From: Coleofasciculaceae cyanobacterium
GTDB taxonomy: Bacteria; Cyanobacteriota; Cyanobacteriia; Elainellales; Elainellaceae
Assembly: GCA_036703255.1 (NCBI GenBank)
Contig: DATNPL010000151.1
Coordinates: 1-32,000 of the forward strand
DNA: 32,000 nt
Direction: 5' to 3'
Of the stretch, positions 4,134 through 30,911 are shown piece after piece. The notes under the pieces were generated by a model. It saw only the letters and a program-made list of their open reading frames with translations, ran no database searches and was not told where the DNA came from. The stretch's first letter is position 1; every line of letters begins with the position of its first letter. A program made the position numbers and the translations under genes.

Positions 4134-4205
4134 AGCCTGTCATGACGGAATAGATTTGATTGGAGTAAAGTAAAGGCAACAAAGCACAGGATGGGAGTGC
4201 CGTAG

Positions 4206-4694
4206 ATGTCGAGCGATCGCCTGCCCCAAGTAGAGAAGAACCTATATCGTCTGCGAGAGCAGCTACATGGCAAAGAAGATACGCTCACCACGATCGCCCC
4301 CGAAGAAAAAGTGCGAATCAAGCAGCAAATTGCTGATTTGAAAGCTGAGATCAAGCCGCTTGAGCAAGAATATTGGCAGATTTTGGCGGAGCGATCGGCT
4401 GCTGTCTCTGTTGAAGAATCAGAGGCAGAGGTGATTGTGGCAGAGTTGGTGGAGCAGGTCGGACAACTGCAAGCCAGCCAGCAATACCCGCCCGAAATTT
4501 TGCCGCTGTTGCAAAAGATTGTTCAAGAGGTCAACAAGCCCGGAGCGCCTGCCGCCGCCAAGCTCAAGGGAACGCTCTCGCTGCTGCCGCCTTTTGTCAA
4601 TGTGACTTACGAAGCCGAGCTGGATACTGAAAACTTCCTACGAACTCATTTCCCGACCTTTACCCGATGGGCTAAAGCACTGGCAAAAAAGTAG
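4206..4694 (+). CDS. 162-aa protein with a coiled-coil-like N-terminal half; probable N-terminal module of the downstream STAND NTPase
   Basis: ATG at 4206. The heptad-like charged sequence LYRLREQLHGKEDTL...IKQQIADLKAEIKPLEQEY is present. The ORF ends GCA AAA AAG TAG (4683..4694) and the downstream NB-ARC ORF is open in the -1 frame from 4676. Confidence 0.6.
   Translation: MSSDRLPQVEKNLYRLREQLHGKEDTLTTIAPEEKVRIKQQIADLKAEIKPLEQEYWQILAERSAAVSVEESEAEVIVAELVEQVGQLQASQQYPPEILPLLQKIVQEVNKPGAPAAAKLKGTLSLLPPFVNVTYEAELDTENFLRTHFPTFTRWAKALAKK
4685..4691 (+). promoter_or_regulatory. Candidate -1 ribosomal frameshift heptamer A_AAA_AAG (or the site of a 1-nt homopolymer indel)
   Basis: The X_XXY_YYZ heptamer is in the correct phase with the 4206 ORF and sits immediately before its TAG. 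The -1 frame continues GTA GCC TCC ... into the NB-ARC ORF. A possible stem, cctctga (4698..4704) with tcagggg (4720..4726), starts 6 nt downstream. Confidence 0.35.
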
Positions 4695-4762
4695 CCTCCT
4701 CTGATCCGATCGCTTCAGGTCAGGGGATTATTGGACAACCCGCCAGCCGATCGCCCCACAAT

Positions 4763-6553
4763 TTGCCCTACACCGGAGCCACTGAATTTGTCGGGCGAGA
4801 AGCCGACCTACAAAAGCTGCACGATCGCCTCCAAGAATCTAACCTGCTGGCAATTACAGCAATTCAGGGCATGGGCGGCATCGGCAAGACCGAATTGGCG
4901 TTGCAATATGCCTATAGCGCACTGGCGCAAGACCAATATCCGGGGGGGGTGTGCTGGCTGCGATCGCGGGAAGACATCAGCACTCAAATTGTCGGCTTTG
5001 CCAGAGTTCACCTAGACTTATCGCTGCCGACTGAGCTGGATTTGTCGCAGCAGGTCGCCTATTGCTGGAGCCACTGGCGCGAGGGCAAGGCGCTATTGAT
5101 CTGGGATGACGTAACGGACTATGCCGAAGTTCAGCCCTACCTGCCGCCGAGGGGCGATCGCTTCCAGATTTTGCTGACCACGCGGGTCGATCTGGGGGCA
5201 TCGGTGCGGCAGTTGCGGCTGGAGGTGTTGAGGGAAGAAGCGGCGCTAGATTTGCTGAGGGCGATCGTCACACAGGGCGGAGAGGTTGAAGACCTCCGAT
5301 TTCTTGAAGAAATCGGAGGTCTGGAGCGGCAGCTTTGTCAATGGGTGGGCTATTTGCCGTTGGGATTGGAGCTGGTGGGGCGGTATCTGGCGCGCAGGAA
5401 AGAGGTGTCGATCGCCACCCTGCTGCAACGGCTGCAAGAAAAACGGCTGGAGGCAAGGGCGCTGCTGCAAGCCGAACCGGGAATGACGGCATCGCTGGGG
5501 GTGGCGGCGGCGTTTGAGCTGAGTTGGCAAGAGCTAAAGCCGTCGGCAAAAGAGCTAGCCGCATGGCTGAGTTTGTTTGCCCTTGCGCCGATTGCTTGGA
5601 CGCTGGTGCAAGCCTGTTTGCCAGAGTGGGATGAGGAAGATCTGGAGGATGTGCGAGACGAAGAGCTGCTGGGGCTGCATCTGCTGCAACCCTCAGAGGC
5701 AGGCATATACCAACTGCATCAGCTCTTGCGAGAATTCTTTGCGGCAAAGCGGCAGCAAATGCCAGCCGAAGCCGCGATGCAGCAAACCCTGTGTCGGGTG
5801 ATGGTGGCAGAGGCAGAACAAATTCCCCAAACCCCAACGCTAGATCTAATTGCCCAATTCACGCCTCTCATTCCCCATCTAGAAGAAGTGGCAACCGCCC
5901 TCACCGACTGCCTCACAGACGATGACTTGATTACACCCTACACTCGAATTGCCTGGTTTTACGAAGGACAGGCGGCCTATGCTCAGGCGCAACCGTGGTT
6001 GGAACAATGCCGAGCAACCGCCGAAACCCGTCTAGGCAAAACCCATCCCGCTGTGGCAACCAGCCTCAACAATTTGGCATTGCTGTACCAATCCACCGGA
6101 CGCTACAGTGATGCCGAGCCATTGTTGGTGCGATCGCTGCAAATTAATGAGCAACAGTTAGGAGCCGACCATCCCGACACAGCCCAAAGCCTCAACATTT
6201 TGGCAGGGCTGTACAAAGCCACCGGACGCTACAGTGATGCCGAGCCATTGTTGGTGCGATCGCTGCAAATCAGAGAGCAACAGTTAGGAGCCAACCATCC
6301 CGACACAGCCCTCAGCCTCAACAATTTGGCATTGCTGTACGACTCCACCGGACGCTACAGTGATGCCGAGCCTTTGTATCTTCGGGCAGTGGTAATTTTT
6401 CACAATCGACTGGGCGAAACCCATCCCACCTTCCAAACCGTTTGGGGTAATTTCATTGCGTTTCTGAGGCAAGCGATTCAGGCAGGGCAAACCGCGCAGT
6501 TATCCGAGCATCCGATGACACAGGACGTGCTGGAACAACTGAGGCGATCGTAG
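4763..6553 (+). CDS. STAND NTPase: NB-ARC domain plus TPR (kinesin-light-chain-like) repeats
   Basis: NB-ARC features: FVGREADL, P-loop GMGGIGKTELA (nt 4868..), Walker B LLIWDDV, ILLTTR, GYLPLGLELVG (GLPL motif). These are followed by 42-aa TPR units HPDTA-SLNNLALLY-STGRYSDAEPLL-RSLQI-EQQLG. The only in-frame start is TTG 4763 (first ATG-encoded Met is inside the P-loop). The frame is open upstream to 4676. Confidence 0.9.
   Translation: MPYTGATEFVGREADLQKLHDRLQESNLLAITAIQGMGGIGKTELALQYAYSALAQDQYPGGVCWLRSREDISTQIVGFARVHLDLSLPTELDLSQQVAYCWSHWREGKALLIWDDVTDYAEVQPYLPPRGDRFQILLTTRVDLGASVRQLRLEVLREEAALDLLRAIVTQGGEVEDLRFLEEIGGLERQLCQWVGYLPLGLELVGRYLARRKEVSIATLLQRLQEKRLEARALLQAEPGMTASLGVAAAFELSWQELKPSAKELAAWLSLFALAPIAWTLVQACLPEWDEEDLEDVRDEELLGLHLLQPSEAGIYQLHQLLREFFAAKRQQMPAEAAMQQTLCRVMVAEAEQIPQTPTLDLIAQFTPLIPHLEEVATALTDCLTDDDLITPYTRIAWFYEGQAAYAQAQPWLEQCRATAETRLGKTHPAVATSLNNLALLYQSTGRYSDAEPLLVRSLQINEQQLGADHPDTAQSLNILAGLYKATGRYSDAEPLLVRSLQIREQQLGANHPDTALSLNNLALLYDSTGRYSDAEPLYLRAVVIFHNRLGETHPTFQTVWGNFIAFLRQAIQAGQTAQLSEHPMTQDVLEQLRRS
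6043..6420 (+). repeat. Three near-identical 126-bp intragenic repeats (TPR units) within the STAND gene
   Basis: The ccatccc landmark recurs at 6043, 6169, 6295 and 6421 (exact 126-nt period). Long identical runs include caccggacgctacagtgatgccgagccattgttggtgcgatcgctgcaaat. Confidence 0.9.
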
Positions 6554-6633: not shown

Positions 6634-6834
6634 ATGTCTGAGCTAACATTGGATCAAAATCAACTCAAAGCGATCGTCAAAGTTGCCCTGCTTGAGCTGT
6701 TTCAAGAAAATCGTAGTGCCTTTACCGAGCTGATTGCAGAAGCGATCGAAGAGATTGGGCTAGAACGAGCGATTGTAGAAGGCGAAGCTACCGAACCAGC
6801 TAGCCGAGCCGATATCTTCAAACTGCTGGAGTAG
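6634..6834 (+). CDS. Putative antitoxin of TA cassette 1 (66 aa, acidic)
   Basis: GGAGA lies 6 nt upstream of the ATG. The stop is 5 nt before the GTG of the RelE/ParE toxin gene. The call rests on small size, acidity and position; no family recognised. Confidence 0.6.
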   Translation: MSELTLDQNQLKAIVKVALLELFQENRSAFTELIAEAIEEIGLERAIVEGEATEPASRADIFKLLE

Positions 6835-6839
6835 CAAGC

Positions 6840-7106
6840 GTGAAGGTTGAGTTCCGAAAAAGCTTTGAAAAAGATCTGCGTAAACTCCGCGATGCCTCAC
6901 TGCTGCAACGAATTAAAGCTGCTATTGAAGAGGTAGAAAGTGCTGAGAGTCTTGAGACAGTCAGCAATCTTAGCAAACTTAAAGCCGAAGGCAATCACTA
7001 TCGTATCAAGATTGGGGATTACAGAATCGGCATCGCGGTTCAATCTAATTCAGTGGACTTTATTCGAGTTCTACATCGTAAGGAAATTTATCGCTACTTT
7101 CCTTGA
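6840..7106 (+). CDS. RelE/ParE-family type II toxin (88 aa)
   Basis: F-KDLRKL, KLK....YRIKIGDYRIGI and IRVLHRKEIYRYFP are the characteristic RelE/ParE (plasmid stabilisation) signature. GTG start. Confidence 0.8.
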   Translation: MKVEFRKSFEKDLRKLRDASLLQRIKAAIEEVESAESLETVSNLSKLKAEGNHYRIKIGDYRIGIAVQSNSVDFIRVLHRKEIYRYFP

Positions 7107-7214: not shown

Positions 7215-7325
7215 TAGGCTAGGCGCGATCGTCTTGGCTAAAGGCTGAGGGGCGATCGCATGAGTTCTGGGCGACTCTACAATCTTGCTACAATTCAGTC
7301 AATGCACACCCGACTCGCCACACTC

Positions 7326-7535
7326 ATGACTCACTCAGTCGAAAACTATCCCTTCGCGCAAGAGTTTATCACTGACCCTCAAGGTAAAATTCGCAAAGTC
7401 ATCTTAGACATTACAGACTACCAAAAATTGCTAGAAGCCTTAGAAGACGAGGGGCTATATCGGGCAATGCAAGAAGTTTCCTCCGAAATTCCCCTCAGTC
7501 TAGAGGATGCCTTATTAGAACTAGAGCAACCGTGA
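7326..7535 (+). CDS. Putative antitoxin of TA cassette 2
   Basis: KVILDITDYQKLLEALEDEGLYRAMQE is typical of small cyanobacterial antitoxins. Its stop overlaps the GTG of the downstream toxin (GTGA at 7532..7535). The start is uncertain: in-frame ATGs at 7260, 7302 and 7326, the first two lying inside the repeated promoter-like segment. Confidence 0.55.
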   Translation: MTHSVENYPFAQEFITDPQGKIRKVILDITDYQKLLEALEDEGLYRAMQEVSSEIPLSLEDALLELEQP

Positions 7536-26655: not shown

Positions 26656-29600
26656 ATGAAAATTCTTCACGGTAGTTGGATTCCGCAATCAGAACCAGGG
26701 TTTGTCCAAAATGGGGCATTTTACCTTTGGGTCGAAACGACTGAACGCAAACAATTTCGCAAACCCACTCAGCAGCACCCTAGCCAGATCTTCTCGGCCA
26801 ATCTGGCAACATTACTGGCAAAAGAGCTAGGAATCCAGCCCCCTGGCTACCGTAAGCTAGAAGACTTTATTTCGCCGCAATACTTTTTGCTGCCCACTGT
26901 CGATCATCAGCCTTTGCCCTCTTTAGAACTCTCTCGCTACCTCGAAGAAGAGTTGCCTGAATCATTTGAGCTGGCGTACTGGCAAATCGACTGCTACAAA
27001 ACGATCGCCTCTGCCAAAACAGGGGGCACCGTTAACAATGTCATCAGCTTGCTCAACGACCTACATTTTTTGGCGTTGCATAATCTGACAGAGATTCAGC
27101 TTGGTGCCGATCTGCTGTTTTGGTTTCACTACACCCAGGCACTAAAGCGAATCATCCTCAAAGATCAGTACATTCCTGCTCTGAAATACCGAGAGATAGC
27201 GCCCTCCCAGACCGCTAAATCCGCTTCGCCAGCGGCTCAGGCAAAAGCTAAGACAGCCACCAAGACCCCTGCAAAAACCTCTGCTAAGACTTCCGCCAAG
27301 GCTAGCGCTAGATCTGCAACGAAAAGCAGGCGATCGCCCCGATCGGCAAACCTGGCAAAACCCCGTGCCGTCACCAAAACCATCGATGTCACGGCTCAAA
27401 ATGCCTCTGCCCAGAAATCTGTCAAATCCTCAACAAGTTCCTTTGAGATCTACCCCGGCTGGGAGCTGATTGGCGAAGAGTATGAATCGATCATTCAGCA
27501 ATACGTCGAATATATGCCCTTGGCTTGTGTGGCAGGTTTTGCCGCACCGCGAGAAACGCCGGAATTTTACGATCGCGCCACTCTGCTTCGCCATTTTTCC
27601 GACTGTCTGCTGACGGATATCGTTACCCATACGCCGACCACACAAGCCTATGAAAAGACGATCGCAGATTCGCTGCTCTATGACTGTTTGCACCGTAACG
27701 ATCAGCCCTGGACTCCGGGTACACACCTAGAGCTGTATCAACAGTGGCAAGTGTGGCGCGATCGCATCGTCCGTACTCAGTCGGATCTGCCGTTTTACCT
27801 CTGCTTCCATTTGCAAGATCCGCTGAAACCCAACGATCCTTGGGAGGTGCAATTTCAGGTCGCGCCCAAAAACGATCCTTCCCTGCGTGTCTCGCTGCAA
27901 GAATACTGGCGCATGCGTCCCCCGCAGCAGAAGCAGATTCAGAAGCAAATGGGGCAAGATTTTGAGCGGCAGTTGCTGATGAATTTGGGCTATGCGGCAC
28001 GAATTTATCCCGATCTCTGGCGCGGTCTGGAAACCGATCAGCCCGTTGGCATTACGCTCAACCTGGATACAGCCTTTGCCTTTCTAAAAGAGTCAGCCTG
28101 GGTGCTGGAAAATGCTGGATACAAAGTTATTGTTCCGGCCTGGTGGACACCCCAAGGACGGCAGCGGGCTAAGGTGCGGCTCAAGGCCAAAGGCAAATCG
28201 TTATCCGGGGGCGAAGACAAAGCCAAGTCTTACTTCTCGTTTGACAACTTGGTGGAGTATGAATATGAATTGGCGATCGGCGGAGAACCCGTCAATGAAC
28301 AGGAATGGAATCAGCTTGTCAGCGCCAAAACGCCCCTGGTGAAATTTCGCGGCCAGTGGATGGAGCTAGATCAAGACAAAATGCGGCAGATGCTGGAGTT
28401 CTGGAAGACCCAGCAGCAGGAAAACCCGGAGCTGAGTCTGCTCGATTTCCTCAAGCTTACGGCTGGAGAAGGAGATGACCTGGAGTTGCAGATCGATCGC
28501 CACAGCAGTCTTTCCGAGATGCTGGCAAAACTAGGAGATAAGAGCCAGCTCCAGCCCGTCGAAAATCCCAAACAGCTTCAGGGCAAGCTGCGAGAATACC
28601 AAAAGCGAGGCGTGTCCTGGGTGCAATACCTAGAAGATCTGGGGCTAAACGGCTGTTTGGCGGACGACATGGGCTTGGGTAAAACTATTCAAGTCATTGC
28701 CCGACTGCTGCAAGAACGAGAGATGGCGGGGAAAAAGCGGGGGAAAACTTTGCCACCGACCCTGCTAATTGCACCCACCTCAGTTGTGGGCAACTGGTAC
28801 CACGAGATTCAAAAATTTGCGCCGCAGCTACAGGCTGTGGTGCATTACGGCACGGATCGCGCCAAAGACAGCCAGGACTTTAAGCAAGCCTGCCGAGAAA
28901 ACGATCTGGTGATTACCTCTTTTGCCCTAGCGCGGAAAGACATCAAGCTATTGAGCGACATCAAGTGGCACCGCATCGTTTTAGACGAAGCGCAGAATAT
29001 CAAGAACCCCAAAGCCGACTTGACCAAAGCCGTTCTGAAGCTCTCTGCCCCGCATCGGCTGGCGCTCACCGGAACACCGATCGAAAACCGCCTGCTCGAT
29101 CTCTGGTCAATCTTTAACTTCCTCAATCCTGGCTATCTCGGCAACCAAGCCCAATTTCGCCGCAGTTTTGAGCTGCCCATTCAAAAAAATAATGATCCAC
29201 AGCAGTCTACCGTCCTCAAAAAGCTGGTAGAGCCTTTCATTTTGCGACGGCTGAAAACCGATCAGTCGATTATCAAAGATTTGCCAGACAAAGTAGAGCA
29301 AAAGCTATACTGCAACCTGACCAAAGAGCAAGCTTCGCTCTATGCGGCCGTGGTCAAAGATGTAGAAAATCAGCTCCAGGCTGTAGAAGGGATTCAGCGT
29401 AAAGGGCTGATTCTGGCAACCTTGACCAAGCTGAAGCAAATCTGCAACCACCCCATGCAGTTTTTGCAGGACGGCAGCGAGTTTACGCCAGAGCGATCGC
29501 ACAAGCTGACCCGCCTGAGCGAAATGGTAGAAGAGGCGATCGAAGAGGGAGAAAGCCTGCTGATCTTTACCCAATTTAACGAACTGGGTCAGGCTTTGGA

Positions 29601-30039
29601 AAAGTATTTGCGGCATGCCTACCACTACAACACCTACTATCTCTCTGGCAGTACCCCACGTAGCAAGCGTGAGCAAATGATTAAGCAATTTCAAGATGCC
29701 GAAACAGAACCTTCGGTCTTCATTTTGTCGCTCAAGGCAGGGGGTGTGGGGATTACCTTAACCAAGGCCAATCATGTGTTTCATTTCGATCGCTGGTGGA
29801 ATCCGGCTGTGGAAGATCAGGCCACCGATCGTGCCTTTCGCATCGGTCAGAAAAAGAATGTTTTCGTCCACAAGTTTGTCGCCATGGGCACCCTGGAGGA
29901 GCGCATCGACGAAATGATTGAAGACAAGAAGAAATTAGCCGGATCGATCGTCGGAGCCGATGAGTCTTGGCTGACAGAGCTTGATAACGATGCGTTTAGG
30001 AAGCTGATTGCTCTCAATAAGAGCGCCATTTTGGAATAG
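26656..30039 (+). CDS. SNF2-family helicase/translocase with a long N-terminal accessory region
   Basis: SNF2_N: LREYQKRGVSWV, LADDMGLGKT (motif I), LDEAQNIKNP (DEAQ, motif II), LTGTPIENRL (III). Helicase_C: LIFTQF, LSLKAGGVGITLT, DRWWNPAVEDQATDRAFRIGQ (VI). The N-terminal ~600 aa contain a Lys/Ala/Thr/Ser-rich tract. Confidence 0.9.
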   Translation: MKILHGSWIPQSEPGFVQNGAFYLWVETTERKQFRKPTQQHPSQIFSANLATLLAKELGIQPPGYRKLEDFISPQYFLLPTVDHQPLPSLELSRYLEEELPESFELAYWQIDCYKTIASAKTGGTVNNVISLLNDLHFLALHNLTEIQLGADLLFWFHYTQALKRIILKDQYIPALKYREIAPSQTAKSASPAAQAKAKTATKTPAKTSAKTSAKASARSATKSRRSPRSANLAKPRAVTKTIDVTAQNASAQKSVKSSTSSFEIYPGWELIGEEYESIIQQYVEYMPLACVAGFAAPRETPEFYDRATLLRHFSDCLLTDIVTHTPTTQAYEKTIADSLLYDCLHRNDQPWTPGTHLELYQQWQVWRDRIVRTQSDLPFYLCFHLQDPLKPNDPWEVQFQVAPKNDPSLRVSLQEYWRMRPPQQKQIQKQMGQDFERQLLMNLGYAARIYPDLWRGLETDQPVGITLNLDTAFAFLKESAWVLENAGYKVIVPAWWTPQGRQRAKVRLKAKGKSLSGGEDKAKSYFSFDNLVEYEYELAIGGEPVNEQEWNQLVSAKTPLVKFRGQWMELDQDKMRQMLEFWKTQQQENPELSLLDFLKLTAGEGDDLELQIDRHSSLSEMLAKLGDKSQLQPVENPKQLQGKLREYQKRGVSWVQYLEDLGLNGCLADDMGLGKTIQVIARLLQEREMAGKKRGKTLPPTLLIAPTSVVGNWYHEIQKFAPQLQAVVHYGTDRAKDSQDFKQACRENDLVITSFALARKDIKLLSDIKWHRIVLDEAQNIKNPKADLTKAVLKLSAPHRLALTGTPIENRLLDLWSIFNFLNPGYLGNQAQFRRSFELPIQKNNDPQQSTVLKKLVEPFILRRLKTDQSIIKDLPDKVEQKLYCNLTKEQASLYAAVVKDVENQLQAVEGIQRKGLILATLTKLKQICNHPMQFLQDGSEFTPERSHKLTRLSEMVEEAIEEGESLLIFTQFNELGQALEKYLRHAYHYNTYYLSGSTPRSKREQMIKQFQDAETEPSVFILSLKAGGVGITLTKANHVFHFDRWWNPAVEDQATDRAFRIGQKKNVFVHKFVAMGTLEERIDEMIEDKKKLAGSIVGADESWLTELDNDAFRKLIALNKSAILE

Positions 30040-30077
30040 CCGTTTTTTAGGGAATAGCCCGTTTGGGAGAAACAGCC

Positions 30078-30911
30078 ATGAGCCAATTTAGCCGCACCTG
30101 GTGGGGACAAAAATTCATTGAAGCCCTGGAAGAAATCTCTGATGACGGACGATTGAGCCGGGGGCGTTCTTATGCGAAAAACGGCAAAGTTACCCACTTT
30201 ACAATTGACAATGGCCTGATCACGGCCAAAGTCAGAGGCTCTGTTAATCCCTACTTTGGGGTATACAAAGAACCGCTCTACACCACTACGATCGAATTTC
30301 ATCCCATTAGTGCAGCAAAGTGGGCAGCCGCGATCGCCCTGATTGCCTCTCGGTCGAGCCTGATTTCACGGCTGCTGCTAAACGAAATCCCTGACAATAT
30401 CGAAGACTCCTTTGCTCAGCTCAGGCTGCATCTGCTGCCCCACAGTAACAAAGATTTTGAGGCCGATTGCTCTTGCCCCGACTGGGGCAACCCCTGCAAA
30501 CACATTGCCGGAGTCTACTATCTCATCGCAGCCGAACTCGATCGCGATCCTTTCTTGCTGTTTGAGCTGCGCGGGCTGTCGCGGCAAGATCTGCTCAAAG
30601 AGTTAGCCAAATCGCCTTTAGGTCAAGCCCTTTCTGACGAACTGCAACTGGCACAGCGATCGCCCCAGCCTGTCTCTTCCTACTACACGCAACCCCAAAC
30701 TACCGCTGCCGTTGCCCCTGCCGAGCTGCGTGATTTTTGGCAGGGTGCCAAGCGGCTTCCCCAGGCGATCGAACCCTTGCCTCAAACGCTTGTTGCAGGA
30801 ATCCCAGTGAAAAAGCAGGGAGACTTTCCTGCCTTCTGGCACCGCGATAACTCCTTCCTAGCAGCCGCAGAAGCGCTCTATGAGCAGGTGAGAAATAAAG
30901 GGCCGCTATAA
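30078..30911 (+). CDS. SWIM zinc-finger protein, partner of the SNF2 helicase
   Basis: CSCPDWGNPCKHIAGVYY is the SWIM CxC...CxH motif. GGGAGA lies upstream of ATG 30078. The gene starts 38 nt after the helicase stop, matching the conserved SNF2+SWIM gene pair (the B. subtilis ywqA/ywqB arrangement, from memory). Confidence 0.85.
   Translation: MSQFSRTWWGQKFIEALEEISDDGRLSRGRSYAKNGKVTHFTIDNGLITAKVRGSVNPYFGVYKEPLYTTTIEFHPISAAKWAAAIALIASRSSLISRLLLNEIPDNIEDSFAQLRLHLLPHSNKDFEADCSCPDWGNPCKHIAGVYYLIAAELDRDPFLLFELRGLSRQDLLKELAKSPLGQALSDELQLAQRSPQPVSSYYTQPQTTAAVAPAELRDFWQGAKRLPQAIEPLPQTLVAGIPVKKQGDFPAFWHRDNSFLAAAEALYEQVRNKGPL

Follow-up and report, generated by a model that had tools for sequence, protein, structure and literature searches.

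A probable programmed −1 ribosomal frameshift joins an adaptor-like helical module to NB-ARC and other downstream proteins in cyanobacteria

We analyzed a 32,000-nucleotide (nt) stretch of DNA from a Coleofasciculaceae cyanobacterium (GenBank assembly GCA_036703255.1, contig DATNPL010000151.1, positions 1 to 32,000 of the forward strand; below, the window). In it, an open reading frame (ORF) for a 162-amino-acid (aa) protein, here called the module, ends on the heptamer A_AAA_AAG and is followed by a stop codon and a hairpin, and a long ORF for an NB-ARC NTPase continues in the −1 frame. Based on comparison with related loci, the site is very likely a utilized, conserved programmed −1 ribosomal frameshift of the dnaX/IS3 kind. 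An earlier note on this DNA had raised programmed −1 frameshifting as one of two options, and the comparative data support it. The mechanism is of a known kind; what appears new is the gene family in which it occurs, together with the biological setting of that family.

Anatomy of the site

The module ORF ends with GCA (4683 to 4685), AAA (4686 to 4688), AAG (4689 to 4691), and TAG (4692 to 4694) (Table 1). The run of A residues is A6 (4685 to 4690), and a script check placed the heptamer in the X_XXY_YYZ phase. No stop codon interrupts the −1 frame from 4676 to 6550; it reads KK VASSDPIASGQGIIGQPASRSPHNLPYTGATEFVGREADL... at the junction and continues into the NB-ARC P-loop. It encodes KK-VASSDPIASGQGIIGQPASRSPHNLPYTGATEFVGRE..., then NB-ARC and TPR_10/12, and the conceptual peptide across the shift is ...WAKALAKKVASS. 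Pfam matched the −1 ORF to NB-ARC at 64.2 bits (cutoff, 23.5) and to TPR_12 at 132 bits (E values for TPR_12/TPR_10, 1e-37 to 1e-39). The downstream ORF is an NB-ARC (AP-ATPase) STAND NTPase with TPR repeats as its presumed sensor.

The only ATG, GTG, or TTG ahead of the P-loop in the window is TTG 4763, which lies inside HNLPY. The peptide VASSDPIASGQGIIGQPASR is encoded 5′ of this codon in the −1 frame, and no Shine-Dalgarno-like sequence occurs in the 18 nt preceding it (AGCCGATCGCCCCACAAT). The earlier note had described the ORF end, the phase of the heptamer, the open −1 frame, and the absence of any start ahead of the P-loop other than a TTG without a Shine-Dalgarno sequence, and our checks agree with it on each of these. 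No promoter-like or terminator-like site was found between the two ORFs of the window. The heptamer itself occurs nine times in the window, versus 9.1 expected by chance, so the significance of this copy rests on its context and on the comparative data.

Conservation across related loci

When one genome per species was scanned, 69 loci with 38 to 82% protein identity were recovered. Nearly all are cyanobacterial, and carriers include Coleofasciculus, Microcoleus, Symploca/Caldora, Nostoc/Anabaena, Microcystis, Pseudanabaena, Leptolyngbya, and Stenomitos. Scripts detected an in-phase A_AAA_AAG or A_AAA_AAA at the C terminus of the module in 65 of the 69 loci, and in nearly all of these heptamer loci a 0-frame stop follows within 0 to 3 codons. 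A long −1 ORF (154 to 1,078 aa, with some cut by contig ends) is present in 55 loci, including the window. The −1 relation is obligatory: all long downstream ORFs lie in this frame, although the distance to the P-loop varies from 45 to 120 codons. The earlier note had proposed a check of whether orthologues keep the heptamer together with its stop codon and an open −1 frame, and they do retain all three.

Codon statistics were compiled for 66 unique sites anchored on the A6 run, with internal invariant Lys and Ala columns of the module as controls. The codon preceding the Lys pair is NNA at 66 of 66 sites, also where it encodes Leu, Pro, Val, Gly, or Lys, and a preceding Ala is encoded by GCA in all 36 cases, versus 26 of 61 at A117. 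The first Lys codon is AAA at every one of the 66 sites, and the second is AAG at 50 and AAA at 14. As controls, the invariant K121 is split between 36 AAA and 24 AAG and K119 between 26 AAA and 33 AAG, and invariant Ala columns draw on all four codons (Fisher P for heptamer codons versus internal controls, 1e-9 to 1e-14). Both the synonymous sites and the ORF arrangement are conserved, in the manner of a −1 frameshift site.

The canonical heptamer has been lost in 5 of 11 partner-less loci versus 0 of 55 loci with a partner (P = 5e-5). The five are L015 (AAC), L043 (AAT), L076 (GCG AAA AAG), and L026 and L063, which have neither an A6 run nor a partner.

Two loci that have lost or lack a partner were also inspected individually. 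In Coleofasciculus sp. FACHB-501 (L076, 2251 to 2290), a protein composed of DUF8370, DUF8371, and the module ends in GCG AAA AAG TGA with no −1 partner, and the first A of the heptamer is gone where no downstream ORF needs it. In Microcoleus sp. A006_D1 (L072, the same as L048; 3488 to 5221), a TRADD-N and module protein adjoins a CyanoTRADDas_TM gene. Here the heptamer and half of the hairpin are kept and the −1 ORF is down to 10 codons, which looks like recent loss of the partner.

Start codons in the −1 ORFs of relatives are often found only past the conserved motifs or the P-loop. The first ATG, GTG, or TTG is codon 47 in L003 (P-loop at codon 54), 53 in L045, 114 in L013, 185 in L021, 195 in L031, 245 in L032, 252 in L047, and 266 in L044. 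The motif P(H/Q)NLPY..(E/K)FVGR, which extends 5′ of the window TTG, is conserved in six relatives (L003, L010, L014, L037, L041, and L053), and this segment is therefore translated.

Downstream hairpin and the possibility of re-initiation

The earlier note had described a 7-bp stem beginning 6 nt past the heptamer. The stem is present, and it actually has 10 bp and begins 5 nt past the heptamer. A 61-nt fold at the window site has a ΔG of −17.5 kcal/mol (z, −1.65). For the 43 loci of the A6G (AAG) class, the 55 nt past the heptamer were folded and compared with coding windows from the same loci, giving a median ΔG of −13.0 kcal/mol (z, −1.8) versus a background median of −9.9 (P = 0.0014). 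After removal of near-duplicates (27 sites), contiguous stems beginning no more than 9 nt from the heptamer were compared with background positions: stems of at least 7 bp occur at 56% of sites versus 25% of background positions (P = 0.003), and stems of at least 8 bp at 37% versus 12%. Across the family, the enriched hairpin lies 2 to 7 nt 3′ of the heptamer, and its arm pairs vary by clade (CCUCUGAUC/GAUCGGAGG, GUCUCCCGAUC/GAUCGGGAGAC, GCUUCUCCUGGU/GUCAGGAGAAGC, and AGACCUGGA/UCCAGGUUU). A 3′ structure of the stimulatory kind, at the spacing of about 5 to 9 nt expected of a −1 frameshift site, is present in the window and is enriched, not universal, in the family.

This support was taken from shuffles and background positions, and an alignment anchored on each site's own fold was avoided as circular. 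RNAalifold returned no consensus structure from a MAFFT alignment of 16 post-heptamer segments because loop lengths differ and the 3′ arms fail to align. In Rfam, even permissive searching matched no known frameshift element. We also considered the hairpin as an intrinsic terminator and rejected this, given that no T-run lies 3′ of it and the long ORF continues downstream.

Many hairpin 3′ arms are G-rich and resemble Shine-Dalgarno sequences (GGAGG, GGGAG, or AGGAG), including those of the window (4718 to 4727), L003, L041, and L053. These arms may simply mirror the C-rich 5′ arms, or they may be a masked internal ribosome-binding site. A masked site of this kind would suit a scheme of two independent, translationally coupled genes, in which termination at TAG 4692 would melt the hairpin and ribosomes would re-initiate at TTG 4763 or a noncanonical start, making the NB-ARC-TPR protein without the module. 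The in-frame TTG, which gene callers use, is in keeping with such a scheme, as is one locus (L070, 2999 to 3056) where a slip site is absent from a distant module that is fused to two TIR/SEFIR domains and a STAND-like gene begins at a GTG 30 nt on. This gene lies in the −1 frame, which is open across the junction, and the locus is either a two-gene version of the pairing or an unrecognized recoding site.

For the window, we consider re-initiation unlikely. It requires no heptamer, yet the synonymous sites of the heptamer are frozen, and it has no frame preference, yet the −1 frame is used by 55 of 55 partners. In many partners, the first ATG, GTG, or TTG comes only past the P-loop. TTG 4763 lacks a Shine-Dalgarno sequence and cuts the conserved PHNLPY..FVGR motif, and the Shine-Dalgarno-like arm ends about 36 nt ahead of it. 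The existence of in-frame fusions with one added A, described below, also argues against separate genes.

Relatives with longer A runs

A second class comprises 11 loci, mostly from Nostocales, in which the run is A9 (ten loci) or A10 (one locus). These are L016, L021, L022, L027, L031, L032, L039, L040, L044, L047, and L067 (~6477 to 6495 in most), and the class has no hairpin (median ΔG, −4.9; z, +0.3). A run of this length without a hairpin is the signature expected of polymerase slippage, which probably reaches the same outcome in these loci. This pattern suggests a switch to transcriptional slippage, or to length variation at the DNA level, within one family. A comparable pair is known from dnaX, which has A_AAA_AAG with a hairpin in Escherichia coli and an A9 run in Thermus (PMC3711429, PMC5009743), and in Thermus thermophilus dnaX a run of this length causes transcriptional slippage (PMC5009743, PMC1088944).

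A shift in the nucleic acid, whether through RNA polymerase adding an A or through variation of the run in population DNA (phase variation), is very unlikely to account for the window site itself. Such a shift would fit the slippage-length, hairpin-free runs of the A9/A10 relatives and the in-frame A7 and A10 variants found in genomes (L008, L035, and L017). The window, in contrast, has only A6, short of the run of at least 8 to 9 A or T residues expected for transcriptional slippage; the literature puts efficient polymerase slippage at runs of about 8 to 9 or more. The run is A6 in all four assemblies of the organism, and 42 of the 43 AAG-class sites are exactly A6 followed by G. The AAG class also carries the downstream hairpin, a stimulator of ribosomal frameshifting.

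In-frame fusions and assembly accuracy

Module and partner are fused in a single frame at three loci, each with one additional A: the run is A7 in L008 and L035 and A10, versus A9, in L017. Two more distant natural fusions are also in frame (P0187 and P0202, with nSTAND1).

The second option in the earlier note was that an A7 run had lost 1 nt, by deletion or by an error of assembly, and that a fusion gene had been split in this way, which would leave the downstream ORF as a pseudogene remnant. Homopolymer runs are indel-prone and fused A7 versions do exist (L008 and L035), but the A6 arrangement prevails in more than 50 species from different orders, and it recurs in the finished genome of an isolate and in all four assemblies of this organism. 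The three assemblies other than that of the window (L073, L074, and L075) have the same A6 with 0 mismatches over 1,200 nt. In addition, downstream ORFs are intact up to 1,078 codons and keep Pfam-detectable domains. Contradicted by the orthologues, the finished replicon, and the three further assemblies, a broken gene or artifact is hardly credible here.

The finished replicon is plasmid pCRI9333.05 of Crinalium epipsammum PCC 9333 (NC_019736.1; L078, 3631 to 3811), where the module gene ends in GCA AAA AAG TTG TAG, a hairpin follows, and the −1 frame reads KKVVARDRQPGQG... into a NACHT ORF. In the one RefSeq record inspected, that of Crinalium, the locus is given as two genes, a hypothetical protein and a NACHT protein from an internal ATG. 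This internal start removes about 60 conserved residues from the NACHT protein. The plasmid is typed as mobilizable (MOBP).

We also observed that, near position 6093, the window has exactly 126 nt (one 42-aa TPR unit) fewer than L073 (4888 to 5014). The difference is seen against two assemblies of the same organism, with all else compared being identical, and is either a copy-number polymorphism or a repeat collapsed in assembly.

Distribution and structure of the module

A database query with the 162 aa extended by 43 residues of the −1 frame retrieved 497 proteins. Of these, the best 120 are all stand-alone proteins of 135 to 178 aa that cover 64 to 81% of the query (mostly 79 to 80%), and none of the 120 clearly reaches into the −1-frame part. 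An identical 162-aa protein is on record from a Coleofasciculaceae metagenome-assembled genome, and the C terminus of the module, ...ALAKK(S), hardly varies. When 1.84 billion representatives were searched with a profile, 309 clusters at 50% identity were recovered, most of them stand-alone proteins of 160 to 170 aa. Among the best 150 clusters, about 25 have the module at the extreme C terminus of longer proteins, including fusions to TRADD-N (P0126), two TIR/SEFIR domains (P0261), STAS-LRR-Roc-COR (P0232), NACHT (P0212), and DUF8370/8371 (P0123). About eight have it in frame at the N terminus of long proteins, P0187 and P0202 (nSTAND1) among them. In one database protein (P0121), an SNF2 helicase is fused upstream of the module.

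The AF2 model of the module is an all-alpha bundle of seven helices (pLDDT, 79.9), in place of the coiled coil read from the sequence in the earlier note. The likeness to the CC domain of plant CC-NLRs proposed there found no support, and no similarity to solved HeLo or MLKL bundles emerged either: Foldseek against the Protein Data Bank (PDB) retrieved only designed or generic helical bundles (best E value, 0.33), and a PDB sequence search returned coiled-coil noise only. The Pfam family EAD9 (PF19962) matches the window protein at 15.3 bits, below its cutoff of 25, and gives weak matches in 11 of 22 relatives (best E value, 3.8e-4).

Downstream partners and the slot occupied by the module

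Partners with NB-ARC and TPR repeats are encoded in the window and in L010, L013, L018, L042, L054, L057, and L060. Other partners carry NACHT (L001), nSTAND_NTPase4 (L021 and L067), WD40 (L007), TPR_1-type repeats (L046, L059, and L066), or CHASE2 (L069). Partners can be unrelated even where the modules share more than 64% identity. Five loci (L004, L005, L010, L014, and L068) have in common the 45 to 50 nt past the heptamer, comprising the hairpin and the start of the linker, and differ in their partners. This sharing of nucleotides across different partners indicates that the slip site travels with the module. We lean toward regarding the module, slip site, stop, and hairpin as a portable recoding cassette that has been joined repeatedly to NB-ARC, NACHT, nSTAND/PDC-S60, WD40, TPR, and CHASE2 proteins and that would fix the ratio of free adaptor to fusion.

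Close homologues of the NB-ARC protein (50 to 58% identity) have EAD1, EAD4, EAD7, EAD10, or TIR in frame at their N termini, from which it follows that the module occupies the adaptor/effector slot. The earlier note had taken the 162-aa ORF to be the missing N-terminal module of this NTPase, a view now strengthened by the in-frame fusions, the start-less ORFs, and this slot. By the features that define effector-associated domains (EADs), frameshifting in 55 loci would place a small noncatalytic domain N-terminal to a STAND NTPase, the position that it has in frame in L008, L017, L035, P0187, and P0202. Further copies are fused to effector or signaling domains or to other domains (P0261, P0126, P0232, and P0123), and the termination product would be a free copy. 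The module may act like an EAD-type adaptor.

The partner in L021, an A9 locus, matches the PADLOC candidate defense protein PDC-S60 (E value, 8e-85), and PADLOC gave no specific match for either window protein. A Bell/BASS-type amyloid two-gene NLR was considered and rejected, as inspection by eye revealed no motif common to the C terminus of the module and the N terminus of the NLR.

Proposed mechanism

Ribosomes translating the module gene would reach the final Lys codons, AAA AAG, inside A_AAA_AAG and would stall there because of the hairpin that begins 5 nt further on, with the adjacent stop codon probably contributing. In a fraction of them, both tRNA-Lys would re-pair one base back. Ribosomes that do not slip would end at TAG 4692 and release the free module, and those that slip would read GUA GCC... 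and produce a 782-aa fusion of module, linker, NB-ARC, and TPR, with the −1 ORF being translated only as the C-terminal part of this product. Upon STAND oligomerization, the NTPase-bound module could then interact homotypically with free module or with copies in TIR or TRADD-N fusions. Through frameshifting, free and NTPase-bound module would be made at a fixed ratio, which could serve homotypic recruitment or buffering. The slip itself, its efficiency, and the function of the module are inferred.

Several observations weigh against a programmed ribosomal frameshift in the window. In E. coli, AAG owes its high shiftiness to the lack of a tRNA-Lys(CUU); no tRNA genes are present in the window. 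No GGAGG-like element of the kind that stimulates dnaX frameshifting from about 10 nt upstream is found 5′ of the window heptamer (GATGGGCTAAAGCACTGGC). The fold of the window hairpin has only a moderate edge, being equaled by 10 of 200 shuffles, and the hairpin is not universal, with L002, L006, L009, L054, and L060 lacking a clear one. TTG 4763 is in frame, which leaves independent initiation in the window as a formal possibility. Because sites were anchored on A6, the count of 66 of 66 is slightly circular; among loci with readable ends, only L026 and L063 lack the run. Elsewhere in the family, an AAGGAGG sequence does lie 13 to 15 nt 5′ of the heptamer, in some clades only (L046, L056, and L057).

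Features and genomic neighborhood of the window

The coordinates of the features discussed above are given in Table 1.

Table 1. Features of the module/NB-ARC locus in the window
Feature	Position	Strand	Remarks
Possible Shine-Dalgarno sequence GGGAG	4193..4197	+	8 nt 5′ of the module ATG at 4206; sequence reading
Module ORF, 0 frame	4206..4694	+	162 aa; all-helical, adaptor-like; would be the termination product
Final −1-frame stop, TAA	4673..4675	+	The two frames overlap by just 9 nt before the slip site
Slippery heptamer A_AAA_AAG	4685..4691	+	X_XXY_YYZ phase; codons GCA AAA AAG
0-frame stop, TAG	4692..4694	+	Immediately 3′ of the heptamer
Hairpin	4697..4727	+	10-bp stem, 4697-4706 with 4718-4727; 5 nt past the heptamer
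−1-frame ORF	4691..6553	+	620 codons plus stop; linker, NB-ARC, TPR
TTG	4763..4765	+	Start of the NB-ARC ORF per gene callers; within conserved HNLPY; no Shine-Dalgarno sequence
NB-ARC NTPase domain	4799..5452	+	PF00931; E value, 1.4e-17; residues 37-254 of the −1 ORF
P-loop GMGGIGKT	4868-4891	+	Sequence reading
TPR_10/TPR_12 repeats	5939..6418	+	Presumed sensor; Pfam

The neighborhood is ordinary chromosome, with genes for an ABC ATPase, a RelB/ParE pair, pta, a PAS histidine kinase, a GGDEF-EAL regulator, the suf operon, TspO, and an SNF2 protein with a SWIM protein. An all-against-all comparison of flanking ORFs found no neighbor gene conserved across genera and only within-genus synteny. 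The upstream ABC ATPase was considered as a shared neighbor and rejected, since the ~32% identity amounts to generic similarity.

Directly 3′ of the NB-ARC-TPR ORF are three small ORFs (6634 to 6834, 6840 to 7106, and 7260 to 7535) that the gene tables of identical loci label as a RelB-like antitoxin, a ParE toxin, and a RelB-like protein. They appear to be a toxin-antitoxin pair and an orphan antitoxin. Further downstream (26656 to 30911), a 1,127-aa SNF2/DUF3670 helicase is followed immediately by a SWIM zinc-finger protein. The HIP1 sequence (GCGATCGC) is present at 44 sites in the window, versus 0.96 expected.

Implications

If the proposed mechanism is true, the locus would be a single-gene implementation of the EAD principle and, among prokaryotic NLR-like (immune or cell death) systems, the first for which a programmed frameshift is described. 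The NLR-like STAND setting is one in which adaptor:sensor stoichiometry is central to signaling. The family would also be one that, like dnaX, switches between ribosomal frameshifting (A6G with a hairpin) and polymerase slippage (A9), offering a natural comparison of ribosomal and transcriptional slippage as answers to one problem. It would add a large family, of 309 clusters at 50% identity across cyanobacterial orders, to the known frameshifts, and it defines an unnamed adaptor domain that is also fused to TIR, TRADD-N, and Roc-COR.

There are consequences for annotation as well. Gene callers report two genes at these loci, one for a hypothetical protein and one for an NB-ARC or NACHT protein that is truncated at its N terminus, and surveys of bacterial NLR domain architecture therefore miss the N-terminal module. 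Constructs begun at the annotated start codon would be without it.

Comparison with known systems

Among bacterial cellular genes, only a few have conserved programmed −1 frameshifts; examples, some of them named in a review, are dnaX, copA, and csoS2. In the full-text literature that we searched, including two large recoding surveys and the EAD papers, we found no description of the frameshift reported here.

The closest mechanistic parallel is E. coli dnaX (tau/gamma), which has the identical A_AAA_AAG, a stem-loop a few nucleotides 3′, and two products with a common N terminus. As in dnaX, one gene family uses A9 without a hairpin in another lineage (Thermus there, mostly Nostocales here). 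Unlike in dnaX, where the shifted ribosome stops almost immediately and yields the short product, the frameshift product of the window would be the long one. The window also lacks the upstream Shine-Dalgarno-like stimulator, its 0-frame stop abuts the heptamer, and the gene family is unrelated.

In its layout, the locus resembles the orfA-orfB pair of IS3-family elements (IS911 and IS150) and retroviral gag-pol, in which a short ORF ends past an A_AAA_AAG-type heptamer with 3′ structure and a long, start-less −1 ORF is expressed only as a fusion (PMC1088944, for part of this comparison). In contrast to those systems, the window locus is not a mobile element or transposase gene and joins an adaptor-like helical module to a STAND NTPase or, elsewhere in the family, another sensor, with one upstream cassette joined to at least six unrelated downstream architectures.

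The combination of an N-terminal module, an NB-ARC, NACHT, or nSTAND NTPase, and a repeat sensor is shared with bacterial NLR-related proteins and with the antiphage STAND proteins Avs and bNACHT. The window locus is not known to have a defense phenotype and is in no obvious defense island, and the first ~150 to 185 profile positions of PDC-S60 are unmatched by the module.

In domain logic, the module is most like the EADs (Kaur, Burroughs, Iyer, and Aravind, 2020/2021; PMC7159879, PMC8195603), which are small noncatalytic domains N-terminal to STAND NTPases with further copies free or fused to effector or signaling domains, and it has weak similarity to EAD9. It differs from EAD9 in size (~160 aa versus 62 aa), and the similarity is below the Pfam threshold. 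The word frameshifting has 0 occurrences in the two EAD papers (PMC7159879 and PMC8195603). In EAD systems, the free and NTPase-bound copies come from two genes, whereas here both would come from one gene by recoding.

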